From positions 480,001 through 544,000 of the forward strand of contig CBDCRP010000003.1 in assembly GCA_965221165.1 (NCBI GenBank): a stretch of 64,000 nt of DNA, written 5' to 3'. The position numbers were made by a program, and so were the translations under genes. Origin of the DNA: a bacterium (GTDB lineage Bacteria > UBA8248). The notes under the pieces were generated by a model. It searched no databases, was not told the DNA's origin, and saw nothing but the letters and a program-made list of their open reading frames with translations. This document shows positions 768-62,060 of the stretch, piece after piece (within the stretch, counting starts at the first letter, position 1; the number at the start of each line of letters is the position of its first letter).

Positions 768-797
768 GTCAATCACGACTGATGAAGGAGTGATTGC
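768..797 (+). repeat. 30-nt hairpin element copy (gtcaatcac-gactgatgaagga-gtgattgc)
   Basis: 7-bp stem caatcac/gtgattg around the loop shared with copies at 26611, 26971, 35762 and 36590. Confidence 0.75.
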
Positions 798-1009
798 AGG
801 CGGATGAGGAAAAATCGGTCCGTAATTCCTCCTTCTTAGGTGGTTTCCTCCCCCGAAATAACTTGCAAGCAATTCTTCTCCTCTACCGGACCCCCAGATC
901 CCATCGAGTTTCAAAGCGGTTGTTCACCTGCCAATTTTTCAATGCGACGGAGTCCCTGCATAAAGCAATAAGGGGTTCACGATGCCTGGAAAATTCAGCG
1001 TCTTTTAAT

Positions 1010-2332
1010 CTACCAAAACCGCCCAGCGGGTCGATCGAGCCCATAGTGTTCTCGCAACGTCTTGCCTTTATATTCTGTCCGGAACAGCCCGCGACGCTGA
1101 AGAATCGGAACCACCTCTTCAACAAAAGCATCCAGCATCGTGGGAAAAAGCGGCGGCATCACATTGAAACCATCGGCGGCGCCTTCGCGGAACCAGTCCT
1201 CAATCAGATCAGCGACCTGCTCGGGCGCGCCGGCAAAAGTAAAGTGGCCGCGAGCACCGGCAAAACGGGCAAGAAGCCGGCGCAAAGTAAGGCCTTCGTT
1301 ACGCACAAGATTGACGACCATCTCGGACCGACTACGCATGGTTTCGACACTGGAGGGTGGAGGGAAATCGTCCGGCGACAGCGGCCGGTCCAGCGGCAAA
1401 TGCGAGAAATCATGTCCGTCGAACCGTGAAGAGAGAGTACGGCGACCGATCTCCGGGTCATTATTCTCATTGAGATCCTGTTCCATTCGTTTTGCTTCGG
1501 TCTCGGTCGACGCAATCATCGGGCTCAGACCAGGCAGAATCAGGACCTGGTTTGCATCACGACCTGCTGCGACCGCTCGCTTCTTGATATCCGTGTAAAA
1601 CTTCTGCGCCGTCGCCTTTTCGAGGTGGGCCGTAAATACCGCCTCGGCGTGACGCGAAGCAAAATCACGTCCGGCATCCGACGATCCTGCCTGCACCAGC
1701 ACCGGTCGCCCCTGCGGACTGCGCGGAAGGGTCAGCGGCCCCGCGACGCTATAATACTTGCCGTTAAAGTCGATTGGACAAATTCGATCACTTTTGGCGT
1801 AGACGCCACCGTTACGATCATCAACCACGGCGTCATCGGCCCAACTGTCCCACAAATCTTTGACGACCTGGACAAATTCCTCGGCCATTATGTAGCGGTC
1901 CGCATGACTATCCTGACCCGCATCACCGAAATTGCGCGCGACCTTCGCCATCCAGGTGGTGACGATATTCCAACCGGCACGGCCATTGCTAATGTGATCA
2001 ATCGAGTTAAACTGCCGCGCAAGGTTAAAGGCCTCAGAATATGTGCTCGACCCCGTCGCGATCAGCCCGACCCGCTCGGTTGCGACGGCGAGCGCCGCTA
2101 ATAAAGTTATTGGTTCAAGCCAGATTCGCCCGGACCGCGGAGCATCCGGTGTCAACATCAGTGAATCAGCGAAAAAGATCGAATCAAAAAGCGCCGTCTC
2201 CGCACGTTGAGCTAAATCCACATAGTAGTTTACATCGGTAAGCGAGGCCGTCGAAGAATCGGGATGGTTCCAGGCTGCTTCGTGGTGGCCCCGAGATTGG
2301 ACGAACAAATTGAGGTGAAGTTGCCTAGTCAT
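1010..2332 (-). CDS. NtaA/DmoA/SnaA-family FMN-dependent (LLM class) monooxygenase
   Basis: [64 protein letters not shown]. Confidence 0.9.
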   Translation of the reverse strand: MTRQLHLNLFVQSRGHHEAAWNHPDSSTASLTDVNYYVDLAQRAETALFDSIFFADSLMLTPDAPRSGRIWLEPITLLAALAVATERVGLIATGSSTYSEAFNLARQFNSIDHISNGRAGWNIVTTWMAKVARNFGDAGQDSHADRYIMAEEFVQVVKDLWDSWADDAVVDDRNGGVYAKSDRICPIDFNGKYYSVAGPLTLPRSPQGRPVLVQAGSSDAGRDFASRHAEAVFTAHLEKATAQKFYTDIKKRAVAAGRDANQVLILPGLSPMIASTETEAKRMEQDLNENNDPEIGRRTLSSRFDGHDFSHLPLDRPLSPDDFPPPSSVETMRSRSEMVVNLVRNEGLTLRRLLARFAGARGHFTFAGAPEQVADLIEDWFREGAADGFNVMPPLFPTMLDAFVEEVVPILQRRGLFRTEYKGKTLREHYGLDRPAGRFW

Positions 2333-2783
2333 TGAAGATAACGGCTCTCATTAGGGGAAGGCAAGATCATTGAACATCATACCCAATTTACGAACAGGAG
2401 CACAAACTGAGCAAAATCCCATCAAGCCGGCTCTGAAAAGTCCGATTGAAAAATTCATTTATGTATCCTCGTTTTGCTGGATGATTTGTAATTCAAGATT
2501 CACCTAGTGCGTCTCGAAAGATATCTTCCATTTCCTTCTCCAACCAAGCTACAATTTTTTCTTTCCCAAAGCCCTCGTGCGCATAAATCTGTTCGACGAT
2601 GTTGATCATCTTTGGTTGCTTTATTGATGCTGACATAATAATCATTCATTCTTCCAAATCTCATCCGGTATTCGCCTTCCGCATCACGTGAGCGAGTTAC
2701 TATCAGATATGATGTATGACCGTCTTGAATCAAGCGGCCAACCCGCTCCGCCTATCCAACTAGTCAAACCACCAATCCAGAAG

Positions 2784-3674
2784 TCATAAATACTTCTTGA
2801 ACCAGTCGATGGCCTCGACCATGCCGATTTCGTGGTGTTCGGGGCTACAGAAGTAATACGACTCGTAATGCTGGGCGCCCGGGAGCTTGACGATCTTCTT
2901 CGGCTCTCCGCAAGCCTCATAGCAACTGATTTGCTCCTGCACCGGCACGAGAAAATCATTTTCCGAATAGATGAACATAACGGGACGCGGCGCGATTCTG
3001 TCCGCCACCCACTCGGGCTTGTAGCGCCAGCAGGCCTCGGCGCTTTGCAGGTCGTAGTCCTTCACGTAATCGTCGTGTTTCTGGTGATTCTCCTGGATGA
3101 CCTTGAGCGTGTGGGGGTCGCAGATCATGATCTCGGGCAGCGGCATCGTGGTCGGCTCGCCGGTGGCGACGCGCTTGCGGGCGGCCTCCATCACTCGTTT
3201 GTGAAAAGAGTCCCACTCGTGCGGCCTCCTCACAGAGCGCATCCAGCGCTCGCCCTCGTGCACCCCCACGGAGGAGACCACCACCTTCACGCGCTCGTCG
3301 AAGGCCGCCACCCAGATGGCGTTCGCCCCGCCGAAGCTCGTGCCGAAAATGCCGATTCGCTCCGTGTCCACGCCCTCGACCGTCTCCATGTAGGAGATGG
3401 CGTCGTAGGTGTCCTGCGCCTGCTCCAGGGGCCGCTGGCGGCCGCGCGCTCCCTCGCTCTTGCCGAAGCCGCGATGATCGGGCGCAAAGATGAAGTAGCC
3501 CTCCTCCCAGAGGCGTCTGGGAACGTCCATGCCGTAGACCTCCTTCATCCCGCTGTAGCCGTGCAGGCAGATGATGGCGGGACCGGGCGGATCGCCCTCT
3601 CGCCAGCCTTTCGGCGTATAGAGGTGGGAGGCGATTTTGAGGCCGTCGCTGTAGTAAACAATCTCTTCGTACAT
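2784..3674 (-). CDS. alpha/beta fold hydrolase (S9/S15/CocE-like)
   Basis: HGYSG oxyanion region, DHRGFGKSEG, nucleophile elbow GTSFGG, C-terminal D and H of the triad. Confidence 0.85.
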   Translation of the reverse strand: MYEEIVYYSDGLKIASHLYTPKGWREGDPPGPAIICLHGYSGMKEVYGMDVPRRLWEEGYFIFAPDHRGFGKSEGARGRQRPLEQAQDTYDAISYMETVEGVDTERIGIFGTSFGGANAIWVAAFDERVKVVVSSVGVHEGERWMRSVRRPHEWDSFHKRVMEAARKRVATGEPTTMPLPEIMICDPHTLKVIQENHQKHDDYVKDYDLQSAEACWRYKPEWVADRIAPRPVMFIYSENDFLVPVQEQISCYEACGEPKKIVKLPGAQHYESYYFCSPEHHEIGMVEAIDWFKKYL

Positions 3675-3764
3675 GCAGGTTTCCCCTTTAGGCTATGCCG
3701 CGAAAATCGGATTTAACTTAAATTATCAATTCCTTACGGCGAATGCGCCACCGGACATTTCTCG

Positions 3765-4604
3765 CTATTCGACCTCGATGCCCCTCAACTCTCGCAACAA
3801 TTCACCAGAGTCGGGCGCGCGCATGAGCGCCTCGCCGACCAGGATGGCGTCGACCCCCTCATCCACCAGGGGGGCCACCTCCTCCCATCCGAAAATCCCG
3901 CTCTCAGAGACCAGAACGATATCTTCCCTCTGCTCGGGCGTTAGCCGAGCGAATACGCGGGATGTATGCTCCGTATCGACCTCGAAGGTCTTGAGGTTCC
4001 GGTTGTTCACGCCGAGCACGCGGGTTCCGGCTTCCAGGGCGCGCCCGAGTTCTTCCTCGGCATAGACCTCGACGAGCGCGTCCATGCCCAATTCTTCTGT
4101 GAGCGCGCGCAAATCCTCCATCTGCGCCGTTTCGAGGATGGCCGCGATGAGCAAGACGGCGTCCGACCCGCCGGCGCGGGCTTCCAATATCTGGTACTCG
4201 GTGAAAATAAACTCTTTTCTGAGGACGGGGAGAGCCACCGCGTCGCGCACCCCTTCGAGATGAGCCATCTCGCCCAGAAAGCGCCTCCGCTCGGTCAAAA
4301 CCGAAATAGCGGCCGCGCCACCAGCTTCATAAGCTTGGGCGATTTCGGCCGGCTGGAAGCTCTCGGCTATCTGCCCCTGGGAGGGGGAGGCTTGTTTCAC
4401 CTCGGCGATGACGCGCATCAGGCCGCCGTCCGCATCTTCGCCCGAATCGGGCCTCTTTAGCGCGCCCGCAAAATCCACAGTCGGCGGCGCGTCACGCGTC
4501 TGCGATTTGAGATCGGCTTCGGAACGTCTTCTCTTGTCCGAGGCGATGTCCTCTCGGACGCCTTCCACGAGCTTATCCAGAACCGTGTGTGTCGCAATCG
4601 TCAA
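3765..4604 (-). CDS. trpC: indole-3-glycerol phosphate synthase
   Basis: VIAEVKQASPSQG, AISVLTE, PVLRKEFI, GVNNRNL, VSESGI, ILVGEALM. Confidence 0.96.
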   Translation of the reverse strand: MTIATHTVLDKLVEGVREDIASDKRRRSEADLKSQTRDAPPTVDFAGALKRPDSGEDADGGLMRVIAEVKQASPSQGQIAESFQPAEIAQAYEAGGAAAISVLTERRRFLGEMAHLEGVRDAVALPVLRKEFIFTEYQILEARAGGSDAVLLIAAILETAQMEDLRALTEELGMDALVEVYAEEELGRALEAGTRVLGVNNRNLKTFEVDTEHTSRVFARLTPEQREDIVLVSESGIFGWEEVAPLVDEGVDAILVGEALMRAPDSGELLRELRGIEVE

Positions 4605-4652
4605 AATTTCATACTCCCTGGAGAAATCGACAATCTATAGGCTAGCGAAGCC

Positions 4653-4992
4653 GGGCTTGATGAAAAAGTCCTGATTTCGCGATTTGGGATATGTAGCAGA
4701 CCTAGGAGGGAAGAGACTTCATTCCCCTCTTAAGGTTTTTCCCAATTTAGAAGAGGATTCACTCCCCCCTTGAGGGGGAGTCGGTGAGGTGAGGGGGATT
4801 TTGCCCGAAACCGAACCGGTGGGGAGAGTTTTTTCTGTGGCATGTCCCCCCACCGAATCGCTTGCGGGCTTTCGCCCTTAGCTCTTCGACTCCCCCTCAA
4901 GGGGGAGTGATGTCTCCTCTCTCCCAGGTCGGTTCCTTACGACGAATCACGAAATCCGGTCTTTTTCAACAACCCCCTCAAAGGGGGAGTGG
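4653..4992. mobile_element. MITE-like foldback element with TG(A/T)TGAAAAAG ends enclosing an inverted pair of ACTCCCCCTTGAGGGGGAGTC REPs
   Basis: 4658-4685 matches the reverse complement of 4944-4971 at 23/28; second inverted arm gacctaggagggaagagac / gtctcctctctcccaggtc; no coding potential. Confidence 0.6.
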
Positions 4993-5045
4993 TTTGGCCC
5001 GACCCGCAAGGTCTTTATCAACAACCCAAGCCGCACCCGCCTCAC

Positions 5046-6056
5046 TCAGGAATTTGACACTTCCTCGAGACGCGCCAGAACCCCGGCCGCCTCGCCCGAA
5101 TCTATCGCCGCGGCCGCCTGCGCGACGCCTTCTCTCAGATCCCCCGCCCTGTCCGCGGCGATGAGCGCGGCGGCGGCGTTCAAGAGCACGATGTCGCGCT
5201 TTGGGCCTTTCTCACCGGCGAGGATGGCGCGTGTGATCTCCGCGTTCTCCTCGGGCTCGCCCCCCTTCACGGCGTCCGCGCCTGCGCGTTCCAGGCCCGC
5301 ATCCTCGGGCGTGACGTCATACGTCCTGATCTCGCTCCCGTCCCACTCCGAGACGCGCGAGGAACCGGTGAGCGTCAACTCGTCCATGCCGTCGGAACCA
5401 TGAACGACCAACGCCTTCTGACAGCCCACCTGCCGCAACACGTCCGCCACCAGCTCGGTGAGTTCGGGCGCGTACACGCCCACCAACTGGCTTTGGGCCC
5501 GGGCGGGGTTCGTGAGCGGCCCCATGACGTTGAAGATGCTCCGCATGGCGATCTCGCGCCTCGGACCGATGGCGTGCTTCATCGCGCCGTGGAGCATGGG
5601 CGCGAACAGAAAACCCACGCCCGCCTCGTCGATGCACTCGCCCACCTTCTCGGGCGTGGCCTCGATGTTGACTCCCAGGGCCTTCAATACGTCGGCTGCG
5701 CCCGATTTGCTCGACACCGCGCGGTTGCCGTGCTTCGCCACCGGCTGTCCCGCCGCCGCCACGACGAGGGCGGCGCTCGTGCTGATGTTGAAGGTGTGGG
5801 CGCCGTCGCCGCCCGTGCCCACCACGTCGACCACAAAGGGGTGTTTCGTCTTCACCCACGTCGCCTTGGCCCGCATGGAGCGGACGCTGCCCGCGATCTC
5901 TTCGGGCGTCTCACCCGCCATGCGAAGCGCCACCAGATAGGCGCCTATCTGGGCCTGTGTGGCCTCGCCCGTCATGATGAGGTCCATCACCTTCTCCGCC
6001 TCATCCGCGCTTAAGTGCCGGCCTTCCACGAGCTTTCCGATGGCTTCCTGAATCAT
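5046..6056 (-). CDS. trpD: anthranilate phosphoribosyltransferase
   Basis: DVVGTGGDG, TFNISTS, KHGNRAVSSKSGAADVL, FNVMGPLTNP. Confidence 0.97.
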   Translation of the reverse strand: MIQEAIGKLVEGRHLSADEAEKVMDLIMTGEATQAQIGAYLVALRMAGETPEEIAGSVRSMRAKATWVKTKHPFVVDVVGTGGDGAHTFNISTSAALVVAAAGQPVAKHGNRAVSSKSGAADVLKALGVNIEATPEKVGECIDEAGVGFLFAPMLHGAMKHAIGPRREIAMRSIFNVMGPLTNPARAQSQLVGVYAPELTELVADVLRQVGCQKALVVHGSDGMDELTLTGSSRVSEWDGSEIRTYDVTPEDAGLERAGADAVKGGEPEENAEITRAILAGEKGPKRDIVLLNAAAALIAADRAGDLREGVAQAAAAIDSGEAAGVLARLEEVSNS

Positions 6057-6792: not shown

Positions 6793-6807
6793 GTCGTATT
6801 CTCCGCC

Positions 6808-26065: not shown

Positions 26066-26125
26066 AATTTGCAGATATTTTCGCCTTTTTTCCCTGTTTT
26101 TCCCCTATTTTCACTTTTTTTCATT
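26066..26125 (+). repeat. 10-bp-periodic T-tract array (six degenerate TATTTTCANN units)
   Basis: aatttgcaga/tattttcgcc/ttttttccct/gtttttcccc/tattttcact/ttttttcatt. Confidence 0.6.
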
Positions 26126-26222
26126 TATCCGGGGCGAATCGCCCGCCGGGCGGCATCTTGCCACACGCCCGGCCCCACGCCACTGCGCCAAATGCGGGCA
26201 GGCGCGCACCCCGGTTTTTGCT

Positions 26223-26555
26223 ATCAAACCCGACCGATGAAGGGTTTGCGTCTTTTGTAGGGGCCGCCCCTCCTCGGGGCTGCCCCACCGTTCGCGAACC
26301 GCCCACACATATATGCGTCCCGCGCCCTGTCGCCCCCAATACATGGGCCGCATGTATGCGTGGGACGGCCCTGGGGAGGGGTTCCGTCCCCTACAGGTCA
26401 TTCGCGACCGAGGAGGAAGGGTTTGTGACTTTCGTAGGGGCGGACCTATGTGTCCGCCCGCCTTTTTTCTGTGATTCTCATTTCCGAGCGAAGAAATAGA
26501 GACGTCATTCCGGTGTCAAACCCGACCGAGGAGGGAGAACAAACCCGACCGATGA
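26223..26555. repeat. cluster of GTAG-type REPs and 30-nt hairpin elements
   Basis: gtaggggccgcccc...cccctac (26257-26394), gtaggggcggacctatgtgtccgccc (26434-26459); hairpin copies at 26223, 26397 and 26515. Confidence 0.7.
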
Positions 26556-27040
26556 GGGGTTGTTGAAAAACCCCTCCCCGCTAAGAATTGACCACTGCCG
26601 TCATTCCGGTGTCAGTCCCGACTGAGGAAGGAGGGGCTGCGGAATCCAGTGCCGAGCGGAATGGCAATACTCCGGCTTTTCATCTCCTCGTCATTGGCGG
26701 GAATCAATCAGAAAATAAAAAACAAAGGCAAAACACATGGATTCCGGCATGCGCCGGAATGACGAACAAAGGCAAGAAGCAATCTCTCCCTCATCCCGAG
26801 TAGGCGCGCTCGCGCGCCGTATCGAGGGTTTGACCCTACCGAGGAGGGAGGGTCAAACGGGGCCCTTCGATACAAACGCTCCTTTCTCAGTCGCGTTTGA
26901 CCTTCGGCGGCTACTCAGGGTGAGGTCGATACCGCGGCATGCAAGACGAGGGTTTGACGCGACCGATGAGGTCAGTTCCGACTGAGAAAGGAGGAACTGC
27001 ATTTGCGCTCGCTCCCAGGACCGGGTTTTTCAACAACCCC
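26556..27040. mobile_element. non-autonomous MITE-like element with perfect 18-bp terminal inverted repeats, filled with REPs
   Basis: GGGGTTGTTGAAAAACCC (26556-26573) and its exact reverse complement (27023-27040); no transposase inside. Confidence 0.7.
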
Positions 27041-27092
27041 GAGGAGCGAGGGTTTGCCGACCAATGCGGCATGAATTCCGGGTCCCTGCTAT

Positions 27093-28235
27093 TCACGACC
27101 CCAGCCATCGCTCATGTTGCTGCAAAGCGTAGCGGTCCGTCATCCCGGCGACATAATCGCAGACCATCCGGTGCAGCCCGTCTATTTGCTCCATTTTGCG
27201 TACGTGTTCCGGGATTTTATGGGGATCGGCGATATACAAATGAAACAACCCGCTCAATGATTTCCGGGCGCTTTTCTCCAGGCTCACGACGCGCTCGTTC
27301 TTGTACATCCGCTCCATCAGGAAACGCTTGAGTTCGGTGTTTCTCTCATTCATCCCTTCACCGAAAACAACCACGTCGTGTCCACCTTCCCTGACGTCCG
27401 AAATGTTTTTCAGCTTGCGGCTCTCGATGCGCTCACATGCGGAGGTGATGATGTCCTGAACCTGCGAGTTGATAATTCGCCGAATCGTGTCGTGTTTGCT
27501 CTCTCGCGAGGAAGAGGCGGGAAAAGATCTTTTTGAGCTTTCATAGTGTTCACGCCAAAGGCGCGTATCCTGCAAGTCTTCAAAGTCGAACAGCCGGGAC
27601 GACAGCCCATCGTCCAAATCATGGTTGTTGTAGGCAATCTCATCCGCCACATCGACCACCTGCGCTTCGAGGCTGGGGGAGATCCTGTTCGTCAGACCCG
27701 AAGGCATCGGGCCCTCGTAGCGATGGAGATATTTTATGATTCCCTCGCGGGTCTCCCACGTCAGGTTCAAACCCGGGAACGAGGGGTAGCGCTTCTCCAA
27801 AACCTCGACTATGCGCAAGGCCTGCAAATTATGCTCGAACCCCCCATGCCCTTCCATGAGCTCATCCAGAACCTTCTCTCCGGCATGCCCGAAAGGGGGA
27901 TGCCCCAAATCGTGCGCCAGGGCAACGGCCTCGGCGAGTTCTTCATTCAGGCCGAGAGCGCGCGCGATGGAACGGGCGATCTGGCTCACCTCTATGGTGT
28001 GCGTCAAGCGCGTCCGGTAATGATCCCCCTCATGATTCACAAAAACCTGGGTCTTGTATTCAAGCCTCCTGAACGCCTGCGTGTGGATGATCCGGTCGCG
28101 GTCGCGCTGAAAGGCCGTCCGCATGTCGTGCTCGGGCTCCGGATGCTTCCGCCCGAGAGAATCGGCGCTATGGGCGGCATAAGGCGCCAGCAAGGCCTTT
28201 TCCCGCTCCTCGATGGAAACCCGCGTGTTGTTCAT
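27093..28235 (-). CDS. dgt: deoxyguanosinetriphosphate triphosphohydrolase
   Basis: FQRDRDRI, RRLEYKTQV, RTRLTHT, HDLGHPPFGHAGE, DYVAGMTD; start trimmed to MNNTRV. Confidence 0.93.
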   Translation of the reverse strand: MNNTRVSIEEREKALLAPYAAHSADSLGRKHPEPEHDMRTAFQRDRDRIIHTQAFRRLEYKTQVFVNHEGDHYRTRLTHTIEVSQIARSIARALGLNEELAEAVALAHDLGHPPFGHAGEKVLDELMEGHGGFEHNLQALRIVEVLEKRYPSFPGLNLTWETREGIIKYLHRYEGPMPSGLTNRISPSLEAQVVDVADEIAYNNHDLDDGLSSRLFDFEDLQDTRLWREHYESSKRSFPASSSRESKHDTIRRIINSQVQDIITSACERIESRKLKNISDVREGGHDVVVFGEGMNERNTELKRFLMERMYKNERVVSLEKSARKSLSGLFHLYIADPHKIPEHVRKMEQIDGLHRMVCDYVAGMTDRYALQQHERWLGS

Positions 28236-34566: not shown

Positions 34567-35649
34567 ATGGTGATGACATCCAAGGCGCTGACGCGGGCGC
34601 TCGCATCCCTCCGGTGCGCTCATAACGATCTGCGGATTATAGCGGGCGATCATGTCAACCCGTCGGGTTTCACCCTGCTGGCAATCCTGAGAAACGAGAT
34701 GTATTTCCTGCCGGATTTCCTCGCCCACTACCGCAGGCTCGGGGTCGAAAGGTTCGTTTTTCTGAACGATCGCTCGGATGACGGGTCTTCCGAATATCTC
34801 CTGGAACAGCCGGATGCCGTCGTTGTGGAGAGCGCCAGGACCTATGGGGAGAAGATCGAGATGCCTCCTTCGTTGGCGCGACGCTTCAAGGATCCCCAAA
34901 TACTTCTTCTCTGGCGGTCCATGCTTCACGAGATGTTCGCCCGGGACCGATGGGCGCTGCAGGTCGATCTGGACGAATTCGTCCACCTCCCCGAGGGAAT
35001 GACCTTCCAGGACCTTGTTGCGCGTTTGGAAAAACAGAGCGCGCGCGCAGTGTGGGGCGTCATGCTGGACGTCTATCCCAAGGATATCGCGGAACTGGTC
35101 GTTCAGAAGGGTTCGCCGCGCCTCGATATGTCCAGGACCTGGTATTTCGATGGAGAAAGGCACTTGCGGCTGCGGTGGGGACAGGGACCCAAAATCGTTC
35201 ATCCGGGGGCCCGCGCAAGGCTCTACCGGGCGTATGGCGTCGACTGGCTGAATCCTGAATCCGGAGTCTCGATGTGGAAGGTATACAGGGAATGGCTGCG
35301 GAAAGTTTTTTTCAGCCACAAACTGCCGAAATACAACTCTCTGGTGAAACCGACACTCCTGAAATGGAAGGACGACAACTCCTTCACTTCCTCGCACCAA
35401 ACCAATCTGCCGGCATCAACGAATTATCTTCTTCCGATCCGGCACTTCCGCTTCGCCGGGTCGCTGTACGGGAAGGTGCAGACGGGGATTCGCGAAAAAT
35501 CCTACCATCGCGGCTCCTTCGATCATCGCCTCCTCTCGGAATTGCTGCGCACAATGGAGGAGCGCAACGGCTCCTTTCTCTACCCGAAATCGAGACCGAT
35601 CGAGTCTTTCGAAGATCTCGCCGGGACCCAAAACGCGTTCGGCCTGTGA
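34567..35649 (+). CDS. glycosyltransferase family 2 (Glyco_tranf_2_4-like)
   Basis: LRNEMYFLPDFLAHYRRLGV, LNDRSDDGS, WALQVDLDEF (DxD). Confidence 0.85.
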   Translation: MVMTSKALTRALASLRCAHNDLRIIAGDHVNPSGFTLLAILRNEMYFLPDFLAHYRRLGVERFVFLNDRSDDGSSEYLLEQPDAVVVESARTYGEKIEMPPSLARRFKDPQILLLWRSMLHEMFARDRWALQVDLDEFVHLPEGMTFQDLVARLEKQSARAVWGVMLDVYPKDIAELVVQKGSPRLDMSRTWYFDGERHLRLRWGQGPKIVHPGARARLYRAYGVDWLNPESGVSMWKVYREWLRKVFFSHKLPKYNSLVKPTLLKWKDDNSFTSSHQTNLPASTNYLLPIRHFRFAGSLYGKVQTGIREKSYHRGSFDHRLLSELLRTMEERNGSFLYPKSRPIESFEDLAGTQNAFGL

Positions 35650-35741: not shown

Positions 35742-35832
35742 GTCAGGCTTTCCCGAGGAGGGTCAAATCCGACCGAGGAGGGAGGATTTGCGTAGGGTCA
35801 GACATATATGTCTGCCACCTGCGTGTCCGCCC
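35742..35832 (+). repeat. nested 30-nt hairpin elements followed by a GTAG REP
   Basis: Half element gtcaggctttcccgaggag interrupted by the full copy at 35762-35791, then gtagggtcagacatatatgtctgcc. Confidence 0.7.
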
Positions 35833-35880: not shown

Positions 35881-36231
35881 CTAATCCTCCTCCAGATGGC
35901 GGGGCAGGTCCATCGCATCGTGCAGCAGACGAAGCACATCGATCAGAAACGGCTCGCTTTCACCCCCGACGCGGTAGAGTACGAAATGCCGGCCCTTTCT
36001 TCCTCCTCTGGCGACGTGAAGCGTCATCAGCCCCTCTGCGATGTCGCCGCGTTCCCTTGCTCCGGCGATATCCGGCCCTTCTCCTAACGCCTCGATGGCT
36101 CCGCTCAAGGTGTCGGCGTAGATGCGCGCCTGTGTCTCACCGAATCGCTCGGAGGTCCAGCGCAGGATGTTCTGGAAATCGGTTTCGGCAGATGTCGTCA
36201 GTCTGACCCGCCAGCGGCGGCGATCCGCCAC
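35881..36231 (-). CDS. type II toxin, ParE/RelE family
   Basis: VRLT..AE.D...I..WT..RFG..QA..Y, HFVLYR, VLRLLH.AMDL. Confidence 0.88.
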   Translation of the reverse strand: MADRRRWRVRLTTSAETDFQNILRWTSERFGETQARIYADTLSGAIEALGEGPDIAGARERGDIAEGLMTLHVARGGRKGRHFVLYRVGGESEPFLIDVLRLLHDAMDLPRHLEED

Positions 36232-36234
36232 CCC

Positions 36235-36525
36235 TTATGCCTCGGCCTCGGCAGCGGGGCCGGCAATAGCATCCTCGGCAATGTTCGAGAGATGTCGGCG
36301 AAGCGATTCCGACGTATCGAAGGAGCGGAATCGGCCCTTCTCGATATCGGCGACACCCCGGGCTGCGGCCTCGCGCAGGGTCTCCACCCTGTCTTCGTGC
36401 TCTTCGAGCAGCCGCAATCCGGCGCGCACCACGTCGCTGGCCGAGTTGTAGCGGCCCGACGAAACCCGCTCGTCGATGAACCCCATGAAATGATCCCCGA
36501 GTGAAACCGATGTATTGCGCGGCAT
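36235..36525 (-). CDS. type II antitoxin, ParD (CC2985-like RHH) family
   Basis: MPRNTSVSLGDHF..FI...V.SGRY.SASDVVRAGLRLLE; GAAGGAGG RBS upstream. Confidence 0.92.
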   Translation of the reverse strand: MPRNTSVSLGDHFMGFIDERVSSGRYNSASDVVRAGLRLLEEHEDRVETLREAAARGVADIEKGRFRSFDTSESLRRHLSNIAEDAIAGPAAEAEA

Positions 36526-36546
36526 GGCGATACCTCCTTCCCGCGC

Positions 36547-36574
36547 ACTATACCAAAAATTGGTATTCATGCAA
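36547..36574 (-). promoter_or_regulatory. parDE sigma70 promoter with overlapping palindromic operator
   Basis: Minus strand TTGCAT-16 nt-TATAGT with TG extension; palindrome ATACCAA-aaa-TTGGTAT at 36550-36566. Confidence 0.65.
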
Positions 36575-36589: not shown

Positions 36590-36960
36590 GTCATTTCCGA
36601 CCGATGAGGGAGGAAATGCCGACTGAAGAGGGTCAGGCTTTCCCGAGGAGGGGAAGCCTGCGTTTGCCGACCGAGGAGGGAGGAACTGCGTAGTGGCGGC
36701 CCCGCCTCCGCCCGCTTTTGTATGGCCGCTCCCGTCATTCCGGCAAATGCCGGTGGCAACCGCAGGTTGAGCAGGCGGACGGGAAACGCATCTATTCTGG
36801 TCCCGGATAAAAGCAATCCGGGATGACGAACAAAAACAAAATAGGGGGACACAGGGGTCTGCCCCTACGGTTCATTTCGATTTGCAGGCCCCTGTAGGGG
36901 CGGTTCGCGAACGGTGGGACAGCCCCGAGGAGGGTGGCAGACATATATGTCTGCCCCTAC
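36590..36960. repeat. chain of 30-nt hairpin elements plus CGTC- and GTAG-type REPs
   Basis: Copies at 36590-36619, 36632-36661 and 36662-36689; cgtcattccgg...ccgggatgacg; gtaggggc...gcccctac (36894-36960). Confidence 0.7.
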
Positions 36961-37039
36961 GAAACCACCACGCCTCCCGCATTGGTTGGAATCGCAAACC
37001 CTCCACATCGGTCGGGTTCCCCCCTACCCCCCACCCAAC

Positions 37040-45589: not shown

Positions 45590-45632
45590 GGCAAAATCCG
45601 ATGTTCGGGCGGCCCGGTATCAAAAAAGACAC

Positions 45633-45665
45633 AAAAAAAACTCCATGCCCAAGGGGCATGGAGTT
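45633..45665 (-). terminator. pyr attenuator terminator
   Basis: Minus strand CUCCAUGCCC-cuu-GGGCAUGGAG followed by U8, upstream of pyrR. Confidence 0.85.
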
Positions 45666-45705
45666 CGGAGAACAGACGAGAAGATGGCAAGCATCCGCGC
45701 TTCCT

Positions 45706-45736
45706 CCTTCGCCGCCTCACGGGACGACATTAAAGG
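45706..45736 (-). promoter_or_regulatory. PyrR-binding RNA element
   Basis: Minus strand CCUUUAA-ugu-CGUCCCGUGAGGCG-gc-GAAGG matches the CCUUUAA..GUCCnGnGAGGy..AAGG PyrR binding loop. Confidence 0.85.
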
Positions 45737-45834
45737 GGAATTTCTATGTCACCACATTATTTCCACCCGGCGAAGAGCCGGCCGGGCTATTTCCTGAAAA
45801 TTAGCAGTCTTTCCGTGAAAGAGCAAGAGGGAAT

Positions 45835-55567: not shown

Positions 55568-55621
55568 ATGTTTCTCTATTGTCCGTGGCGACCGGGCCGT
55601 CCACCCGCCCGCCGTAGGTTT

Positions 55622-57180: not shown

Positions 57181-57212
57181 GCGAACATAGTTGCACATAC
57201 TGGAGAAGAGAA

Positions 57213-57392: not shown

Positions 57393-57652
57393 TGAATCCG
57401 TACGAAATCATATATACGGAGAGAGCCCTACATGCTCTCGAAAAACTGCCAACCAAAAAACTAAAGCGGCAAATAACGAACAAGATCGATAAATTGGTGG
57501 ACAGCGAGGCGCAAGGAGGAATAAGAGTCCGCGGGATTTCGAGCAATGTTTACCGGATAAGATCGGGTGATTATCGAATTCTGTATACCATTGATCGGGA
57601 TTTCAAAATCAACATTCTCGACATCGGGCACCGAAAAGACATCTCCCGTTAA
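57392..57652 (+). CDS. type II toxin, RelE/ParE family mRNA interferase
   Basis: YEIIYT.RA...LEKL, YRIRSGDYRILY.I, ILDIGHRKDI. Confidence 0.9.
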   Translation: MNPYEIIYTERALHALEKLPTKKLKRQITNKIDKLVDSEAQGGIRVRGISSNVYRIRSGDYRILYTIDRDFKINILDIGHRKDISR

Positions 57653-57774
57653 GATATGTTCTTCAATCGAATTATTTTGCCCCGATTCCATAACTAGCTC
57701 ATCCTGGATTCATAAGGCGTCTATCAATTTGCGTATCTCATTCCCATCCAAAACCAAACCGCTGGAGCCATGAA

Positions 57775-58947
57775 ATGAGCCTGCAAACGGAATCCACGCT
57801 GCAATTCGACCTCGACGAAACGCAAAAGATGCTTCGCCAGACGGTCCGCGAACTCTCGGAGCGCTACATCGCCCCGCGCGCCGCCGACATCGACGAGAAC
57901 GAGGAATACCCCGAAGACATCTACCAACTGCAAAAAGACCACGGCCTGCTCGGCATCTTCTTCCCCGAGGAATACTCAGGCGGCGGGATGGGCTTTCTGG
58001 GCGGCTGCATCGCCATCGAGGAGATCGCGCGCGTCTGCTCGAATTCTCCTCTTTTCATCGTGCTCAACATGCTCTCGAGCCGCGTCATCGACTTGAGCGG
58101 TACGCAGGAGCAGAAAAACCACTACATGACGGGCCTCGCCAAAGGCGAGTTGAGAGGCTCCTACGCCCTTACCGAACCTCACGCGGGCTCAGACGCCGGC
58201 AACATCCGAACGCGCGCCGTCAAGGAGGGCGACGAATGGGTCATTAACGGCACCAAGTGCTTCTGCACGGGGCCCGACAAGGCGGACTTCATCACCGTCG
58301 CCGCCAAGACCGACCCCCACGCGGGAACGCGCGGGATCACCTACTACATCATGCCCACCGACACGCCGGGCTTCAGCATCGCCAAGCACGAGCGCAAGAT
58401 GGGGATGCGGGGCATTGCAACCTGCATGCTGAATCTCGACAACGTGGCCGTCCCGCTCGAGAACCAGGTGGGTGAGTTGAACCAGGGTTTCAAGACCGCG
58501 ATGGTAGGCTTCAATCAGATGCGGCCCGCCATCGGCTCGCGCGCGGTGGGTCTGGCCCAGGGCTGTCTCGACTACGCGGCCAACTACGCCAAGGAGCGCG
58601 AGGCGTTTGGAAAGCCCATCGCCCAGCACCAGGCCGTGCAGTTCATACTCGCCGACATGTTCATGGACATCGAGGCGGCGCGGCTGCTCGTCTACCGCGC
58701 GGCGGCCATGGTGGATGCGGGGCAAATCGGCAAGGAGAACGCCAGGTATTTCTCGACGGCCAAGACCTATGCGGCCGACATGGCGATGAAGTGCGCGATA
58801 GACGGCATCCAGGTCCTGGGCGGGGCGGGCTACATGAAGGACCACCCGCTCGAACGATTCATGCGCGACGCCAAGCAGATCCAGATAGTCGAGGGAACGA
58901 GCCAGATACAGCGGATGATCATCGCCCGGAACCTGCTCGACCTCTAG
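57775..58947 (+). CDS. acyl-CoA dehydrogenase family protein
   Basis: ALTEPHAGSDA, INGTKCFCT, KMGMRG, REAFGKPI..HQ, QVLGGAGY, IVEGTSQIQR. Confidence 0.93.
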   Translation: MSLQTESTLQFDLDETQKMLRQTVRELSERYIAPRAADIDENEEYPEDIYQLQKDHGLLGIFFPEEYSGGGMGFLGGCIAIEEIARVCSNSPLFIVLNMLSSRVIDLSGTQEQKNHYMTGLAKGELRGSYALTEPHAGSDAGNIRTRAVKEGDEWVINGTKCFCTGPDKADFITVAAKTDPHAGTRGITYYIMPTDTPGFSIAKHERKMGMRGIATCMLNLDNVAVPLENQVGELNQGFKTAMVGFNQMRPAIGSRAVGLAQGCLDYAANYAKEREAFGKPIAQHQAVQFILADMFMDIEAARLLVYRAAAMVDAGQIGKENARYFSTAKTYAADMAMKCAIDGIQVLGGAGYMKDHPLERFMRDAKQIQIVEGTSQIQRMIIARNLLDL

Positions 58948-58959
58948 GAGCGCGCGGAG

Positions 58960-60126
58960 GTGACTGGAAAGCCAGGCTCTCAAGGCGCGTTCGAACTTAG
59001 CGAAGCCCAGCGTATGCTGGGCGAGACGGTGTATGAGCTGAGCCGACGCCACATCGCGCCGCGCGCCGCCGAAATCGATGAGAACGACGAATATCCCGAA
59101 GACGTCTTCGAGCTTCTGAAATCACACGACCTGCTCGGCCTCTATGTTCCCGAAGCCTATGGCGGGGCGGGGCTCGGCATCCTGGAAACTTGCGTCGCCA
59201 TCGAGCAGATGGCGCGGTTTTGCTCGAACTCTCCCCTATTCTTCTCCGTCCACCTGCTCGCCACGCGGCCCGTCGCCGGCGGCGGAAGCGAGGCGCAGAA
59301 AAACCGCTATCTTGCCGGCGTCGCCCGGGGCGAGTTGCGGCCCGCCTTCTCGCTCACCGAGCCGCACGCGGGTTCTGACGCCGCGAACATATCGACGAGG
59401 GCGGTCAAGGATGGGGATTCGTGGGTGATCAACGGCCATAAATGCTACTGCACGGGTTCGAGCGTGGCTGATTTCATCACCGTGGCGGCGAAGACGGAAC
59501 CTGATAAGGGGGCGAGGGGCATATCTTTTTTCATCGTTCCCAGGGGCGAGTTCCGCGTGGGCCGCCATGAGCGGAAGATGGGGATGCGGGGCATCCCGAC
59601 GTGTGAGATTTTCCTCGAAAAGGCGCGCGTTCCCTTGGAAAACATGATCGGCGAGCCGGGCCTTGGCTTCAAGACCGCCATGCTCGGCTTCAACCAGGCG
59701 CGGCCCGCCATCGGCGCGCGGGGCGTGGGCCTTGCGCAGGGGTGCCTCGATTACGCATCCGGGTACGCAAAGGAACGCGAGGCTTTTGGAAAACCCATCG
59801 CCCAGCACCAAGCCGTTCAATTCATGCTCGCCGACATGTTCATGGAAACCGAGGCGGCCCGTCTGCTCGTTTACCGCGCCGCCTCGATGGTGGATAATGG
59901 CGACTACCAAAAAGAACATGTGCATTTCATTTGCGCCGCGAAATGCTACGCCACCGACGTGGCCATGAAGGCCGCCGTGGACGGCGTTCAGGTCTTGGGC
60001 GGCGCGGGCTACATGAAAGACCATCCGCTCGAGCGGTTCATGAGAGACGCCAAGCAACTGCAAATCATCGAGGGAACCAACCAGATTCAGCGGATGGTCA
60101 TCGCCCAGAATTTATTAAGTTTATAG
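58960..60126 (+). CDS. acyl-CoA dehydrogenase family protein (paralog of the upstream gene)
   Basis: SLTEPHAGSDA, INGHKCYCT, KMGMRG, IIEGTNQIQR. Confidence 0.93.
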   Translation: MTGKPGSQGAFELSEAQRMLGETVYELSRRHIAPRAAEIDENDEYPEDVFELLKSHDLLGLYVPEAYGGAGLGILETCVAIEQMARFCSNSPLFFSVHLLATRPVAGGGSEAQKNRYLAGVARGELRPAFSLTEPHAGSDAANISTRAVKDGDSWVINGHKCYCTGSSVADFITVAAKTEPDKGARGISFFIVPRGEFRVGRHERKMGMRGIPTCEIFLEKARVPLENMIGEPGLGFKTAMLGFNQARPAIGARGVGLAQGCLDYASGYAKEREAFGKPIAQHQAVQFMLADMFMETEAARLLVYRAASMVDNGDYQKEHVHFICAAKCYATDVAMKAAVDGVQVLGGAGYMKDHPLERFMRDAKQLQIIEGTNQIQRMVIAQNLLSL

Positions 60127-60154
60127 TTCAAGTTCCCCATTACGGAGATTCGAG

Positions 60155-60763
60155 ATGAGCCAGATGATTGAAATCGTAAAACCCACCTCCTTCGTTCGCG
60201 CGGGCGACCACCCCCTGGCGGAGCGCCCCGAAGACCTGGGGGGACTCCGAATCGGCTTTTTCCACAACAACAAGCCCAACGCCGACGTTTTGCTGGAGCG
60301 AATCGAGGAGCTTTTCTCCCAACAAGACGAAACGCTGCGCTTTATCCGCTGGGGAAAGCCGAACCCGACCCTGCCGGAGGATCGCCTCGAAGAATTCCGC
60401 GAACAGGTGGACGTGGCCGTCTGCGCGGTGGGCGACTGAGGGAGTTGCACGTCATGGAGTATCCATGACTCGGTGGAGATGGAAAAGGCAGGCGTTCCGA
60501 CGGCCACGTTCTGCTCCAGTGAATTTTCGGCCCTGGGCGCGAACGAGAGAACGGCTTTGGGGATGCCCGGCCTTCCGATAGTCGTCGTGGCGCATCCGGT
60601 GGGGGGAATCGCGCCCGAAAAAGCGCGCGCTCTGGGAGACGGCGCGATGGAGGAGGTGCGGCGCATCCTCACGAGCGATGCCGAATCGCTCCGAAAGGAA
60701 TACCGGGAACGCGAATACGTCCCGCCCCGAAAGACGGTGCGCCACAAGGCGCTCTTCACATAG
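60155..60763 (+). CDS. UGSC-motif selenoprotein (Sec at TGA 60437-60439), 202 aa
   Basis: ORFs 60155-60439 and 60473-60763 are in frame; readthrough gives AVGD-U-GSCTSWSIHD..EMEKAGVPT (UxxC); SECIS-like hairpin follows. Confidence 0.88.
60451..60469 (+). promoter_or_regulatory. bacterial SECIS-like hairpin
   Basis: GTCATGGA-GTA-TCCATGAC: perfect 8-bp stem with apical G, starting 11 nt after the TGA. Confidence 0.75.
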
Positions 60764-60776
60764 GCGGGCCTACAAT

Positions 60777-61853
60777 ATGAACGACCACTCTCAGGAAAAT
60801 CTTGCACTTGAAAGCGAGCGCGTAAAGGTTCGCAACACGCCCGAGGCGCTCGCGCGCCTGCTCGAAGCGCGGGGATGGGGAGACGGCCTGCCCGTCGTCG
60901 CCCCTACGCCCGAGCGCGTCGCCCGAATGGTGGAGGGCGCAGGCCTGGCCCCTGATGCGGAAATCGGCCTCATGCCGCCCCGCCAGGGAGTCATCACCAT
61001 GGAGGCCCTCGCCGTGAACGCCGTGATGGCCGGCTGCCTTCCGGCGTACATGCCCGTTCTGGTGGCCGCGGTCCGGGCGGTGCTGGCGCCCGAGTTCTCG
61101 CTCCACGCGATTCAGGCGACGACCCACCCGGTGGCGCCTCTCATCATCGTGAACGGCCCGGTGGTGGAGGAAATAGGCTTGAACGCCGAATATGGATGCT
61201 TCGCCCCCGGCAACCGGGCGAACGCGACGATAGGCCGCGCGTTGCGCCTGGCGCTTTTGAACATCGGGGGCGCGAGCCCCGGCGTTCTGGATCGCGCCAC
61301 GCAAGGATCCCCTGCGAAATACGCGTTCTGCATCGCCGAGAACGAGGCGGCCTCCCCCTGGGAGCCGCTGCACGTAGAGCGCGGTTTTGCGCCCGAGGAG
61401 AGCGCGGTGACGCTGGTTGGCTGCGAGGGACCCCACAACGTCAACGATCACGTGAGCCACACGGCGGAGGGGATTCTCGCCACCGCCGCCGATACGATGT
61501 CCATCATGGGGAGCAACAATTTCTATCTGCGCGGAGAACCCGTTCTCGCGCTCGGCCCCGAGCACGCGGCGACCATCGCGGGGGACGGCCACACGAAAGC
61601 GGACGTGAAGCGGAGAATCGTCGAACTCGCCCGCAAGCCCGTGCGCCGGCTAAAGCTCGGCGCCATGTGGGGTATGCAGACCTGGGGCGAGGAGATAGCC
61701 AAAAACGAAGGCGATGATGATTTCGAGATTCCGCTTCTCGACGGGCCCCAAGACTTACTCCTCATCGTCACTGGCGGGGCCGGCAAGCACTCGTGCTACC
61801 TGCCCACCTTCGGCCCCACGCGCTCGGTGACCCGGCGGATCGAAAACGGCTGA
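60777..61853 (+). CDS. conserved hypothetical protein, partner of UGSC proteins
   Basis: GDGLPVVAPT, AVNAVMAGC, QATT, NRANATIGRALRL, AENE..SPWEPLHVERGF; starts 13 nt after the UGSC gene. Confidence 0.75.
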   Translation: MNDHSQENLALESERVKVRNTPEALARLLEARGWGDGLPVVAPTPERVARMVEGAGLAPDAEIGLMPPRQGVITMEALAVNAVMAGCLPAYMPVLVAAVRAVLAPEFSLHAIQATTHPVAPLIIVNGPVVEEIGLNAEYGCFAPGNRANATIGRALRLALLNIGGASPGVLDRATQGSPAKYAFCIAENEAASPWEPLHVERGFAPEESAVTLVGCEGPHNVNDHVSHTAEGILATAADTMSIMGSNNFYLRGEPVLALGPEHAATIAGDGHTKADVKRRIVELARKPVRRLKLGAMWGMQTWGEEIAKNEGDDDFEIPLLDGPQDLLLIVTGGAGKHSCYLPTFGPTRSVTRRIENG

Positions 61854-61892
61854 GAACAGAAGGGATTGTAATTCCCTGCCTTTCGTTTTTGC

Positions 61893-62060
61893 TCGTCATT
61901 CCGCAGTGTTTTCATGCGGAATCCAGCGACTTTGCTTTTCGCTTTCGCCTTTCGTGGTCAAACTCGACCGAAGAAGGAGGTATTGTTCCGACTGGAGAGG
62001 AGAAAATACCGCCATGTCGTCCTTCCCATCGGCTCTGGATTCCGGCATGCGCCGGAATGA
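61893..62060. repeat. inverted CGTC-type REP pair enclosing degenerate 30-nt hairpin copies
   Basis: cgtcattccgc...gcggaatccag and tggattccggcatgcgccggaatga (also at 26738); gtcaaactcgaccgaagaagga at 61957. Confidence 0.7.

Follow-up and report, generated by a model that had tools for sequence, protein, structure and literature searches.

A family of short hairpin repeats with a conserved GA-rich loop and variable stems, best described as REP-class, in an uncultured Nitrospinota genus

The question raised by this locus is what the short GA-looped hairpins scattered through it are and how they multiply. The locus is a stretch of 64,000 nucleotides, called the window below, which corresponds to C3:480001-544000 of the source genome G000, a metagenome-assembled genome (MAG) of three contigs (C1-C3, 3.69 Mb, 59% G+C; 96% complete, 8.5% contamination). 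Bare positions refer to the window. A sequence-only reading of the window had proposed a dispersed hairpin element with the motif (G)GTC-[7 nt]-GA-[2 bp]-GANGA-[2 bp]-GA-[7 nt']-C. The motif was recovered where that reading had placed it, both at the seven sites called clean (768, 26611, 26971, 35762, 36590 and 36632 on the plus strand, 26872 on the minus strand) and at the variants or halves (26223, 26397, 26515, 26828, 26952, 35742, 36662 and 61957). The sites 36632 and 35742 had been counted as copies of the family; their loop differs (TCCCGAGGAGGG) and they belong to a sister hairpin type. The genome G000 was compared with 22 sister species (23 genus genomes). The comparison revealed a real hairpin repeat family of about 30 bases with more than 100 copies in one uncultured Nitrospinota genus. 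The element is best described as a new selfish hairpin repeat family of the repetitive extragenic palindrome (REP) class, one that divides the roles of loop and stem in an unusual way, targets itself through its junction and forms chains of half units, in a genome that gave no RAYT match.

The abundance of the element was analysed at several levels. The core GACYGANGARGGA with at most one mismatch occurred 17 times in the window, compared with 1.83 on average and at most 7 in 100 dinucleotide-preserving shuffles. The whole genome contained 121 exact cores and 329 cores with at most one mismatch. Seven flanking letters on each side formed all seven pairs at 51 of the 121 exact cores and six pairs at a further 18, while at random positions seven pairs were seen in 4/5000 and six in 57/5000. 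The 138 genome cores with at least six of seven flanking pairs were used as the working set. A structural descriptor requiring pairing (7 nt, GA, 2 nt, G[AG]NGA, 2 nt, GA, 7 nt) found 101 sites in G000 and none in the reversed genome, which served as decoy. A covariance-model scan of the genome and its relatives, proposed as a check along with the sequence-only reading, gave at least 142 matches in G000 among the 150 candidates scored and showed 16 of the 22 sister species to be copy-rich; the model was trained on 27 copies picked for perfect stems and matches were counted at E up to 0.01. In a scan of public genomes with a pattern that left five letters per arm free, 83 of 104 matches had all five arm pairs, compared with 16.8 expected from shuffled partners. 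The core-like sites at 4690, 43924 and 62073 pair at 3/7 only and are therefore chance matches. The core counts against shuffles, the pairing statistics and the descriptor against its decoy together bear out the proposal of a dispersed structured element.

The anatomy of the unit was derived from the working set. Its consensus reads g-R-R-G, then G-T-C-A-[A/G]-[T/A]-[C/T]-[C/G]-C, then the centre G-A-C-Y-G-A-N-G-A-R-G-G-A, then G-...-T-T-G-C. The unit is thus about 31-34 nt long and consists of a GRRG left junction, a GGTC head, a 6-7-bp stem, a 13-nt centre, the return arm and a TGC tail; conservation extends from three letters 5' of GTC to the C after the return arm and nothing is conserved beyond. 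The stems follow the rule CA[AG]WYSC, in which about four inner positions vary with two or three letters each, and 64 distinct arm pairs occurred among the 138 copies. The stem had been described as freely covarying. The covariation stands, but the freedom does not, as the arms obey this rule. The idea of an element defined by structure rather than sequence was likewise not upheld, since the sequence is conserved in the head (GGTC), the 13-nt loop and the tail (TGC), and only about four inner stem positions vary.

In the alignment of the 27 copies, 98.7% of the cells were paired and 8/9 pairs had changed on both sides, compared with 35-55% paired when the partners were slid, although these statistics are biased because the rows had been selected for perfect stems. 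At the inner pair 17-23, on which the pattern used for searching imposed nothing, 73 copies had CG, 47 TA, 12 TG, 2 CA and 4 another combination. The inner helix in the descriptor set was of type CC/GG at 44 sites, CT/AG at 30, GC/GC at 10, CT/GG at 10 and GT/GC at 4, with three singles. The suggested covariation of the inner 2-bp stem was therefore found to be broader than CY/RG, as GC/GC and GT/GC types also exist. A search by the arms alone brought up a sub-family in which the inner pair 16-24 is swapped from C-G to G-C (GAGCGAGGAGCGA, GAGTGAGGAGCGA). The centres collected by this arms-only search were the core or near variants of it, so the conservation of the loop is not merely an effect of the search. 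Both the outer and the inner helix thus covary, and the two GA steps and the GANGA loop are invariant. The 13-nt centre is read as putative tandem sheared G·A pairs around the 2-bp helix, capped by a GNRA-like pentaloop.

The strand that folds was identified from the mismatched cells. When the copies with five or more Watson-Crick stem pairs were considered, the non-Watson-Crick cells comprised 29 of G·T or T·G and 13 of A·C or C·A; adding the inner pair brought the G·T type to 41 cells and the A·C type to 15 (p=7e-4). G·T is tolerated far above A·C, and hence the purine-rich strand is the folding strand. For the sense strand the predicted RNA energy averaged -11.7 kcal/mol, compared with -7.4 for the antisense and -4.1 for shuffled sequences; DNA parameters gave -4.8, -4.0 and -1.9 in the same order. 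The position counts of the 138 copies revealed no T-run after the hairpin.

The distribution of the element among the sister species was uneven. At least 47-139 matches each were found in 16 of the 22, while G009 had 8, G001, G008 and G019 had one each, and G006 and G015 had none. The 28 genomes of 14 other Nitrospinota genera were empty except for two matches in G030, which lie on loci that are 100% identical over 3039 bases. The matches of the public scan came from Nitrospinota and Nitrospinaceae MAGs by their record titles. Eight matches in other phyla (e.g. Actinospica, Chloroflexota, Archangium, Paenibacillus) are chance since their arms pair at 3/5 or fewer. Judged from the genomes compared, the family is confined to one Nitrospinota genus.

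Copies have been gained and lost between close species, as seen in the spacers of G000, G005 and G007, in accordance with the suggestion of a mobile element. A 20-kb stretch holding six copies had none of them in the blocks aligned to G005 or G007, whose genes are about 90% identical. One spacer measures 545 bp in G000, where it is a mosaic, and 39 bp in G005, where the sequence is plain; G007 has another mosaic there, 292 bp long. Behind the window gene 34567-35649, the sister hairpin is complete in G005; in G000 only its 5' half is present, fused to another copy, and the remainder of the spacer is rearranged between the two. The lone hairpin of G001, with the same loop and other stems, was not conserved at the orthologous place in G000. 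Copies lying directly behind stop codons behaved differently. Two of them were 30/30 identical to their orthologues in other species while the flanks differed at 3-5/45 positions, and one is common to G000 and the copy-poor G009. Two docked sites were followed across the genus; at one the copy is kept in 3-4/21 genomes, and at the other at least the 5' arm is kept in 8/21. At a further docked site G005 has the same arms with three loop changes, G002 has other arms, and G013 and G007 have the 5' arm only. Most copies thus turn over fast between close species, and a stop-docked subset persists.

The placement of the copies relative to genes was analysed using gene positions from a codon-usage caller written for this analysis (3045 genes, 83% coding). 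The copies lay outside predicted genes in 130 of 138 cases, each between two predicted genes, and inside them in 8. Convergent spacers held 52 of the 130 copies against 19.2 expected, divergent spacers 14 against 19.1 and co-directional spacers 64 against 91.7 (chi-square p=5e-15). In the co-directional spacers 32 copies were sense and 32 antisense, and in the convergent spacers the copy was nearer the gene to which it is sense in 33 cases against 19 (p=0.07). An excess of plus-strand copies had been noted in the window. It is true there but local, since the 138 copies of the genome are split into 67 plus and 71 minus, and no replichore bias was found with local GC skew as proxy (72 copies on the G-rich strand, 66 on the C-rich strand).

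The position of copies relative to stop codons was strongly asymmetric. Among copies with the 5' end towards the stop of a co-oriented gene, 18/84 lay 0-5 nt from it, and among those with the 3' end towards a stop 0/84 did (Fisher p=2.8e-6); within 60 nt the numbers were 28/84 and 4/84. The 18 docked stops, read by eye, comprised 11 TAG, 4 TGA and 3 TAA, compared with 33%, 42% and 25% genome-wide. The stop codon provides the purines of the left junction (TAG/GTC, TGAGG/GTC, the slash marking the junction). Relatives without the copy have TAA at the same stop (G013, second haplotype), and G005 has TGAGG/GCC. A similar donation of TAG stops to flanking open reading frames (ORFs) is reported for GTAG REPs by Di Nocera 2013 (PMC3733652).

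The element was also found in pieces. The spacing between cores on the same strand was 22 nt in 32 cases, 24 nt in 16, 21 nt in 8 and 20 nt in 6, and the genome contained 30 chains with up to 17 boxes per chain. These chains obey a simple grammar, in which the box GACYGANGARG is followed either by GT and a 5'-type arm or by GA and a 3'-type arm with C or CC, and then optionally by the next box. They include stretches made of 5' units, stretches made of 3' units (on C1, a 22-nt unit repeated identically 11 times) and mismatched arms. The half units, each a box with a 5' arm or a box with a 3' arm, are 20-22 nt long and join into chains and tandem arrays. The chains of the window lie at 26515-26568, 26952-27001, 35742-35792 and 36590-36689.

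Sites of entry were sought by joining the 40-nt flanks of each copy and looking for adjacent occurrences in the same genome. Seven independent filled/empty pairs were found in paralogous host repeats, and in each of them a 31-nt unit stands in place of 5-11 letters with no target duplication. The first host is a CGTC-type REP CGTCATTCCGGC-GAAA-GCCGGAATCCA whose loop is swapped for the element; the copy at 26611..26641 is of this kind, and five paralogous empty REPs have CGAAAGCCG or CGCATGCCG where it sits. The second is ACTCCCCC-TTGA-GGGGGAGT, with entry 3' of cttGAGG. Among about 59 occurrences of this host the slot 3' of cttGAGG holds GGGAGT, an element copy or a sister hairpin (GTCGGGCTT-CCCGAGGGGA-AAGCCCGAC). 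The third host, CAGCCCC-GAGGA-GGGGCTG, was entered 3' of GAGGA, and the fourth, a composite repeat, 3' of acGAGG. The fourth is seen in three states: empty (C2:1270677, G005 and one contig of run X2), with a single copy (C2:686928), and with a half and a copy (26952-27001). Its empty form in G005 and run X2 reads GAGG-GGAAC-GCGCTC; this empty allele was the one useful joint in the assembled contigs of four public runs, which were otherwise repeat-dominated noise. The recurrent upstream contexts were TCCGGT (10), TGGGGG (10), TTGAGG (8) and CCGAAG (7). The element therefore lands in or just behind the loops of other hairpins, at GARG/G of its own loop and directly behind stop codons, and the nesting in CGTC-type REPs, in other palindromes and in itself, as previously suggested, is borne out by the filled/empty pairs and the chains. 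Three copies have a 3' arm similar to the host letters whose place they took (GGGAGT to GGGAATG, GGAAC to GGAACTG, GGGCT to GAGGCTG). The same arms occur in unrelated flanks, so that this resemblance is microhomology at most, and copying of the arms from the target as a general rule is ruled out.

Genes that might mobilise the element were sought in G000 and its sister species. The suggested link to HUH nucleases of the RAYT kind failed in this genome, as the RAYT/Y1 transposase family (PF01797) had 0 matches in G000 and hits in the genus were unrelated to copy number. Y1-like frames, present in 11/23 genus genomes, do not follow copy number; they are missing from the single-contig genomes G010, G020 and G022, which carry 94-114 copies. 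No copy lies within 1.5 kb of the full-length RAYT-like gene in G005, and in G012 three variant copies lie 280-450 nt from a partial Y1-like frame. RAYT/IS200 as mobiliser is thus rejected on its absence from G000, the missing relation to copy number and the unflanked gene of G005. The TnpB zinc-ribbon domain (PF07282) had 0 matches in G000, and a DUF559 gene flanked by copies, which had been put forward as worth looking for, was absent as well (PF04480, 0 matches in G000). GIY-YIG had 3 matches in G000; one frame of 643 aa is presumably UvrC, judged from its length only, and another, encoding a protein of 318 aa, has an element copy some 180 nt upstream. Genes with a copy on either side were ordinary, and an HSDR_N-like nuclease gene among them was rejected as it is present in copy-poor and absent in copy-rich genomes. 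Gene families with at least three near-identical copies were not found in G000, which had pairs only, the largest of the clusters listed coming from duplicated contig ends. The earlier statement that the element has no known mobiliser thus holds among the genes searched. The duplicated ends contain one region of about 105 kb twice, at C2:1-107000 and C3:1-110000, in opposite orientation and at 84-92% identity; this doubling indicates that the MAG merges two related populations, which fits its 8.5% contamination.

An insertion sequence (IS) of the IS110 family at C3:1620094-1621471 is inserted in a GTAG REP beside two element copies, and a diverged second copy lies at C3:1254515-1255887. Such elements are known to enter sites of this kind; the neighbourhood is incidental and says nothing on the hairpin element.

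How the element spreads can be weighed against these data. A chance pattern or an artefact of chimeric assembly is extremely improbable: the contamination of 8.5% and the 105 kb doubled at 84-92% identity would permit it, but 16 other species genomes, several of them single-contig assemblies, have at least 47-139 matches each, the decoy gave 0 sites against 101, and the shuffles gave 1.8 cores against 17. We lean, by a little, towards a factor that acts in trans, reads the loop and works on the folded purine-rich strand. The folded single strand, either single-stranded DNA at the replication fork or a cruciform, would be the substrate of this factor, which would read the loop and need only pairing in the stem. 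The loop would be held fixed by the factor, and the stems would drift by compensatory or hairpin-templated changes. The factor would be something other than a RAYT/IS200 transposase, and chains and arrays might arise where units share the 13-nt box, by recombination, template switching or slippage. The minority docked on stop codons in sense would be old and may have been taken into use as hairpins at mRNA 3' ends, a role proposed for other REPs. Several results count against this account. Clean cut-and-paste of a single fixed unit agrees with none of the seven junctions, and since the pairs come mostly from paralogous host repeats some of their differences may be divergence rather than insertion. 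Many copies ride in larger composite repeats, so that independent insertions are well below 138. No mobiliser was identified and no tested gene tracks copy number; nor was a transposition intermediate or a new insertion seen in the public runs, which comprised assembled contigs only. The tag typical of GTAG REPs, GTAG(G)n, stands directly 5' of only 10/138 copies, the consensus there being G-R-R-G. The gene calls rest on a crude caller. The persistence of the docked minority is favoured by an orthologue in at least one other species for 7/7 stop-docked copies examined and for 0/9 others, but this contrast is inflated because gene-adjacent sequence aligns more easily. A more specific form of the same idea, a 30-nt micro-transposon of a new kind whose enzyme would recognise, on single-stranded DNA, the hairpin with tandem G·A and pentaloop and cleave it 3' of GARG, is considered unlikely. 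Under it the element would be its own preferred target, as GARG stands at its left border and in its own loop, and half hairpins of 20-22 nt could move or reiterate alone; such a unit would be the smallest structure-defined mobile unit described, working without RAYT.

The data could also be explained by a cis-acting RNA element, that is, an mRNA 3' hairpin serving as a stabiliser, a processing site or a protein-binding site, with the GA-rich loop read in the transcript and the dispersed copies as by-products. The folding of the purine-rich strand and the tolerance of G·U-type pairs (41 against 15) agree with this, as do the docking of sense copies on stops (18/84 against 0/84; 28 against 4 within 60 nt), the tendency in convergent spacers to lie nearer the sense gene (33 against 19, p=0.07), the two docked copies kept 30/30 between species despite flank changes of 3-5/45, and the copy in common with the copy-poor G009; the same has been argued for REPs generally by Di Nocera 2013 (PMC3733652). 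It is nevertheless judged doubtful, because half of the copies in co-directional spacers are antisense (32 against 32), 0/9 of the other copies examined are conserved between species of about 90% identity, one docked orthologue has 3 loop changes between G000 and G005 with different arms there in another species, no T-run follows the hairpin, no Rfam family matches, and a CsrA or L7Ae-type protein occurs in 0/23 genus genomes. The stop-docked, long-lived copies are the best place to test an RNA role. Spread without any enzyme, by template switching or slippage at stalled hairpins (microhomology copy choice) with gene conversion between 13-nt boxes and hairpin-templated stem repair, would account for the absence of PF01797, PF07282, PF04480 and of families with at least three near-identical copies. 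It would equally account for insertions in or beside hairpins with few letters replaced and no target duplication, the GAGG/G common to left junctions and box, the three 3' arms resembling replaced host letters, and the half units, chimeric arms and tandem arrays that all break within the shared box. We give it little credence all the same: by itself it leaves unexplained both the folding of the purine strand (G·T over A·C) and the tandem GA and pentaloop kept across sub-families with swapped inner pairs, the same arms in unrelated flanks indicate that arms travel with the element and are not made by the target, and the microhomology cases are few and anecdotal.

The relation of the element to known repeats was then considered. 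According to Di Nocera, De Gregorio and Rocco 2013 (PMC3733652), REPs form two super-families, GTAG-tagged and CGTC-tagged. The former have stems of 5-13 bp and loops of 2-20 bp, are associated with RAYT and carry the tag in more than 90% of members; the latter have a CGTC (or TGTC/CCTC) tag, an 8-9-bp stem starting with A/T, a 4-5-nt loop, a 3-nt tail (CCA) and no dedicated transposase (PMC3733652). For both, the same text takes G·T pairing and a position downstream of genes as signs of transcription, and it states as open how CGTC REPs spread and what they do. The generic definition of a REP, an imperfect palindrome of 20-40 bp in high copy and extragenic, applies to the element (31 nt, at least 142 matches, 130/138 extragenic). 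Like both super-families, it is an extragenic palindrome of about 30 nt with more than 100 copies, bears a tag that stays unpaired and, at the opposite end, a short tail, has G·T pairs in the stem, is over-represented in convergent spacers and 3' of genes, is found singly, in dimers and in clusters, donates TAG stops with its end and is patchily distributed among species. Like the CGTC REPs it lacks a dedicated transposase. Unlike them, it has a GGTC tag (C first in 4/138), a stem of 6-7 bp starting with AA, a centre of 13 nt and a GC(C) tail. It also differs from REPs in general, whose signature is the stem and whose loops are mostly 2-5 nt: here the 13-nt centre is conserved and has its own 2-bp helix between tandem G·A, the stem is variable (64 arm pairs) and half units form head-to-tail chains. 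The sequence-only reading had spoken of an unnamed mobile micro-element; dispersal and gain and loss between species support this, while a place outside the known kinds does not follow, as the element files under the REP class. With REPIN/RAYT systems (Bertels and Rainey 2011, PMC3116915) it shares the multiplication of a non-autonomous hairpin repeat in a genome, and some copies form inverted pairs 40-100 nt apart as REPINs do (e.g. C3:1178183/1178227), but the genome lacks a RAYT and the copies are mostly singles or head-to-tail chains instead of inverted doublets. Integron attC sites (57-141-nt folded sites with R/L boxes, in one-orientation arrays by intI) also differ, the present unit being too short and dispersed in both orientations. 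Bacterial interspersed mosaic elements (BIMEs) of E. coli, BOX elements of pneumococci and Neisseria intergenic mosaic elements (NIMEs) are modular mosaic repeats that recombine short modules in variable tandem units. The element resembles them in its modular build and in whole spacers filled with nested repeats, but its modules are far shorter (an 11-13-nt box and 7-9-nt arms) and are two halves of one hairpin. The small dispersed repeats (SDR) of Nostoc (Elhai et al. 2008) are reportedly 21-27-nt mobile non-coding repeats inserting into one another and into other repeats; they differ from the element in phylum and sequence.

Rfam gave no match on the motif, either at the gathering score over the whole window or at E up to 10 over 26100-27120, in agreement with the earlier remark that it is not a named family. 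Literature searches found no paper on Nitrospinota repeats, with most subscription journals outside their coverage. Some other identities were considered and rejected. A miniature inverted-repeat transposable element, which has the terminal inverted repeats of its parent IS and duplicates its target site, does not fit, as the seven pairs have no target-site duplication (5-11 letters replaced) and the genome has no multi-copy IS. The hammerhead ribozyme has CUGANGA and GAAA cores joined by three helices; in the element the second core letter is C in 75/138, GAAA with a third helix is missing and no Rfam hammerhead match was obtained. A kink-turn has tandem G·A preceded by a 3-nt bulge and is bound by a protein of the L7Ae family; the loop here is symmetric with a covarying 2-bp helix, and the L7Ae family (PF01248) occurs in 0/23 genus genomes, so that a kink-turn or box C-D motif was dismissed. 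CsrA/Rsm sponges, which are arrays of GGA motifs acting with a CsrA protein, were likewise dismissed, CsrA (PF02599) being found in 0/23 genus genomes.

REPs are among the commonest non-coding features of bacterial genomes, and the spread of RAYT-less families is open. The present family offers a cleaner handle than most because its loop is a structured 13-nt unit, its stems carry many compensatory changes and it marks its own insertion site; the half units and arrays reveal the joining points, and the copy-rich and nearly empty species of one genus permit a phyletic search for the factor. Much of the variation in spacer length among close Nitrospinota genomes is due to the element (at one site, 545 bp compared with 39 bp), which will also break short-read assemblies of this group.

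Table 1. Positions of the element, its fragments and the sister hairpin in the window
Feature	Position	Strand	Description
Complete copy	768..798	+	GTCAATCAC-GACTGATGAAGGA-GTGATTGC; 7/7 pairs; covariance-model E=5.8e-10
Variant copy	26223..26253	+	5' arm CAAACCC and box; short deletion at the joint of box and 3' arm
Chimeric copy	26397..26427	+	Arms pair 4/7 (CATTCGC / GGGTTTG)
Two-box chain	26515..26568	+	GTCAAACCC-box, AACAAACCC-box, then an unrelated repeat
Complete copy	26611..26641	+	Takes the place of the loop of a CGTC-type REP (CGTCATTCCGG..GGAATCC)
Complete copy	26828..26858	+	9-bp stem GTTTGACCC/GGGTCAAAC, box TACCGAGGAGGGA, within palindrome GTATCGAGG..CCTTCGATAC
Complete copy	26871..26901	-	GTCAAACGC/GCGTTTG; within the composite repeat of about 165 bp
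Half and complete copy	26952..27001	+	5' half (GTTTGACGC and box up to GAGG) fused to GTCAGTTCC/GGAACTG
Sister hairpin, 5' half	35742..35761	+	GTCAGGCTT-TCCCGAGGAGG, broken in the loop; full hairpin at the orthologous place in G005
Complete copy	35762..35792	+	GTCAAATCC/GGATTTG, GTAG REP directly after; top covariance-model match of the genome
Complete copy and lone box	36590..36631	+	GTCATTTCC/GGAAATG, then box CGACTGAAGAGG
Sister hairpin	36632..36661	+	GTCAGGCTT-TCCCGAGGAGGG-GAAGCCTGC; different loop type
Chimeric unit	36662..36689	+	GTTTGCC-box-GGAACTGC, arms unpaired, GTAG REP next
Decayed copy	36993..37030	-	A relative (locus L105) has an intact copy at the orthologous place
Variant copy	61957..61987	+	GTCAAACTC-GACCGAAGAAGGA-GGTATTG, 5/7 pairs, a further half unit after

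The features of the window are collected in Table 1, and several neighbouring repeats were observed beside them. The sister hairpin family has the form GTCGGKCTT-[CCCGAGGRGR, either orientation]-AAGMCCGAC and shares with the element the GTC head and a GAGG-rich loop; besides the sites 36632-36661 and 35742-35761, eight perfect palindromes occur elsewhere. The copy at 768..798 ends a larger composite repeat (...gatgcgtgggg followed by GGTC). The composite repeat of about 165 bp at 26809-26971 was found in at least six places (C1:20242, C2:411638, C2:686776, C2:1270682 and C3:990148 besides the window); it holds one minus-strand copy and its end is the start of a plus-strand copy. Another composite repeat, ACTCCCCCC-TTGA-GGGGGAGT followed by GCAGAAGCCGAGCG..GAAGGCTGATGCGTGGGGGG, lies at 534-560 and 715-735 and has about 59 places genome-wide; its slot 3' of cttGAGG is occupied by one or another of several hairpins.

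CGTC-type REPs of the form CGTCATTCCGGC-GAAA/GCAT-GCCGGAATCCA lie at 26590-26650, 26740-26768, 36724-36750, 61893-61930 and 62038-62065. They fit the published CGTC-1 REP in tag, 8-bp stem starting with AT, 4-nt loop and CCA tail, and would carry the CGTC super-family into Nitrospinota. At least two GTAG-tagged REP families (GTAGGGGCGGACCTATGTGTCCGCCC, GTAGGGTCAGACATATATGTCTGCCACC) are present at 26258-26290, 26437-26462, 35793-35830 and 36690-36720, and no RAYT gene was found in the genome. On locus L136 of G012:C1, a 65-nt tandem repeat at 1054-1221, beside a partial Y1-like frame, has three units, each with a variant copy whose loop is GATTGGTGAATGA; in this variant the 16-24 pair would be T·T.

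Between the two groups of copies near 36 kb, the minus-strand stretch 35881-36548 contains the overlapping ORFs 35881-36231 and 36198-36548, which are read as a toxin-antitoxin pair. Judged by eye, the ORF 35881-36231 is ParE-like; it is also the predicted gene that has a copy on either side. Of the two ORFs, only the second covers a stretch that aligns to G005, where the spacer is rearranged. The only Rfam family in the window was a PyrR binding site (RF00515) at 45631-45740 on the minus strand, with 55.7 bits against a gathering score of 54.

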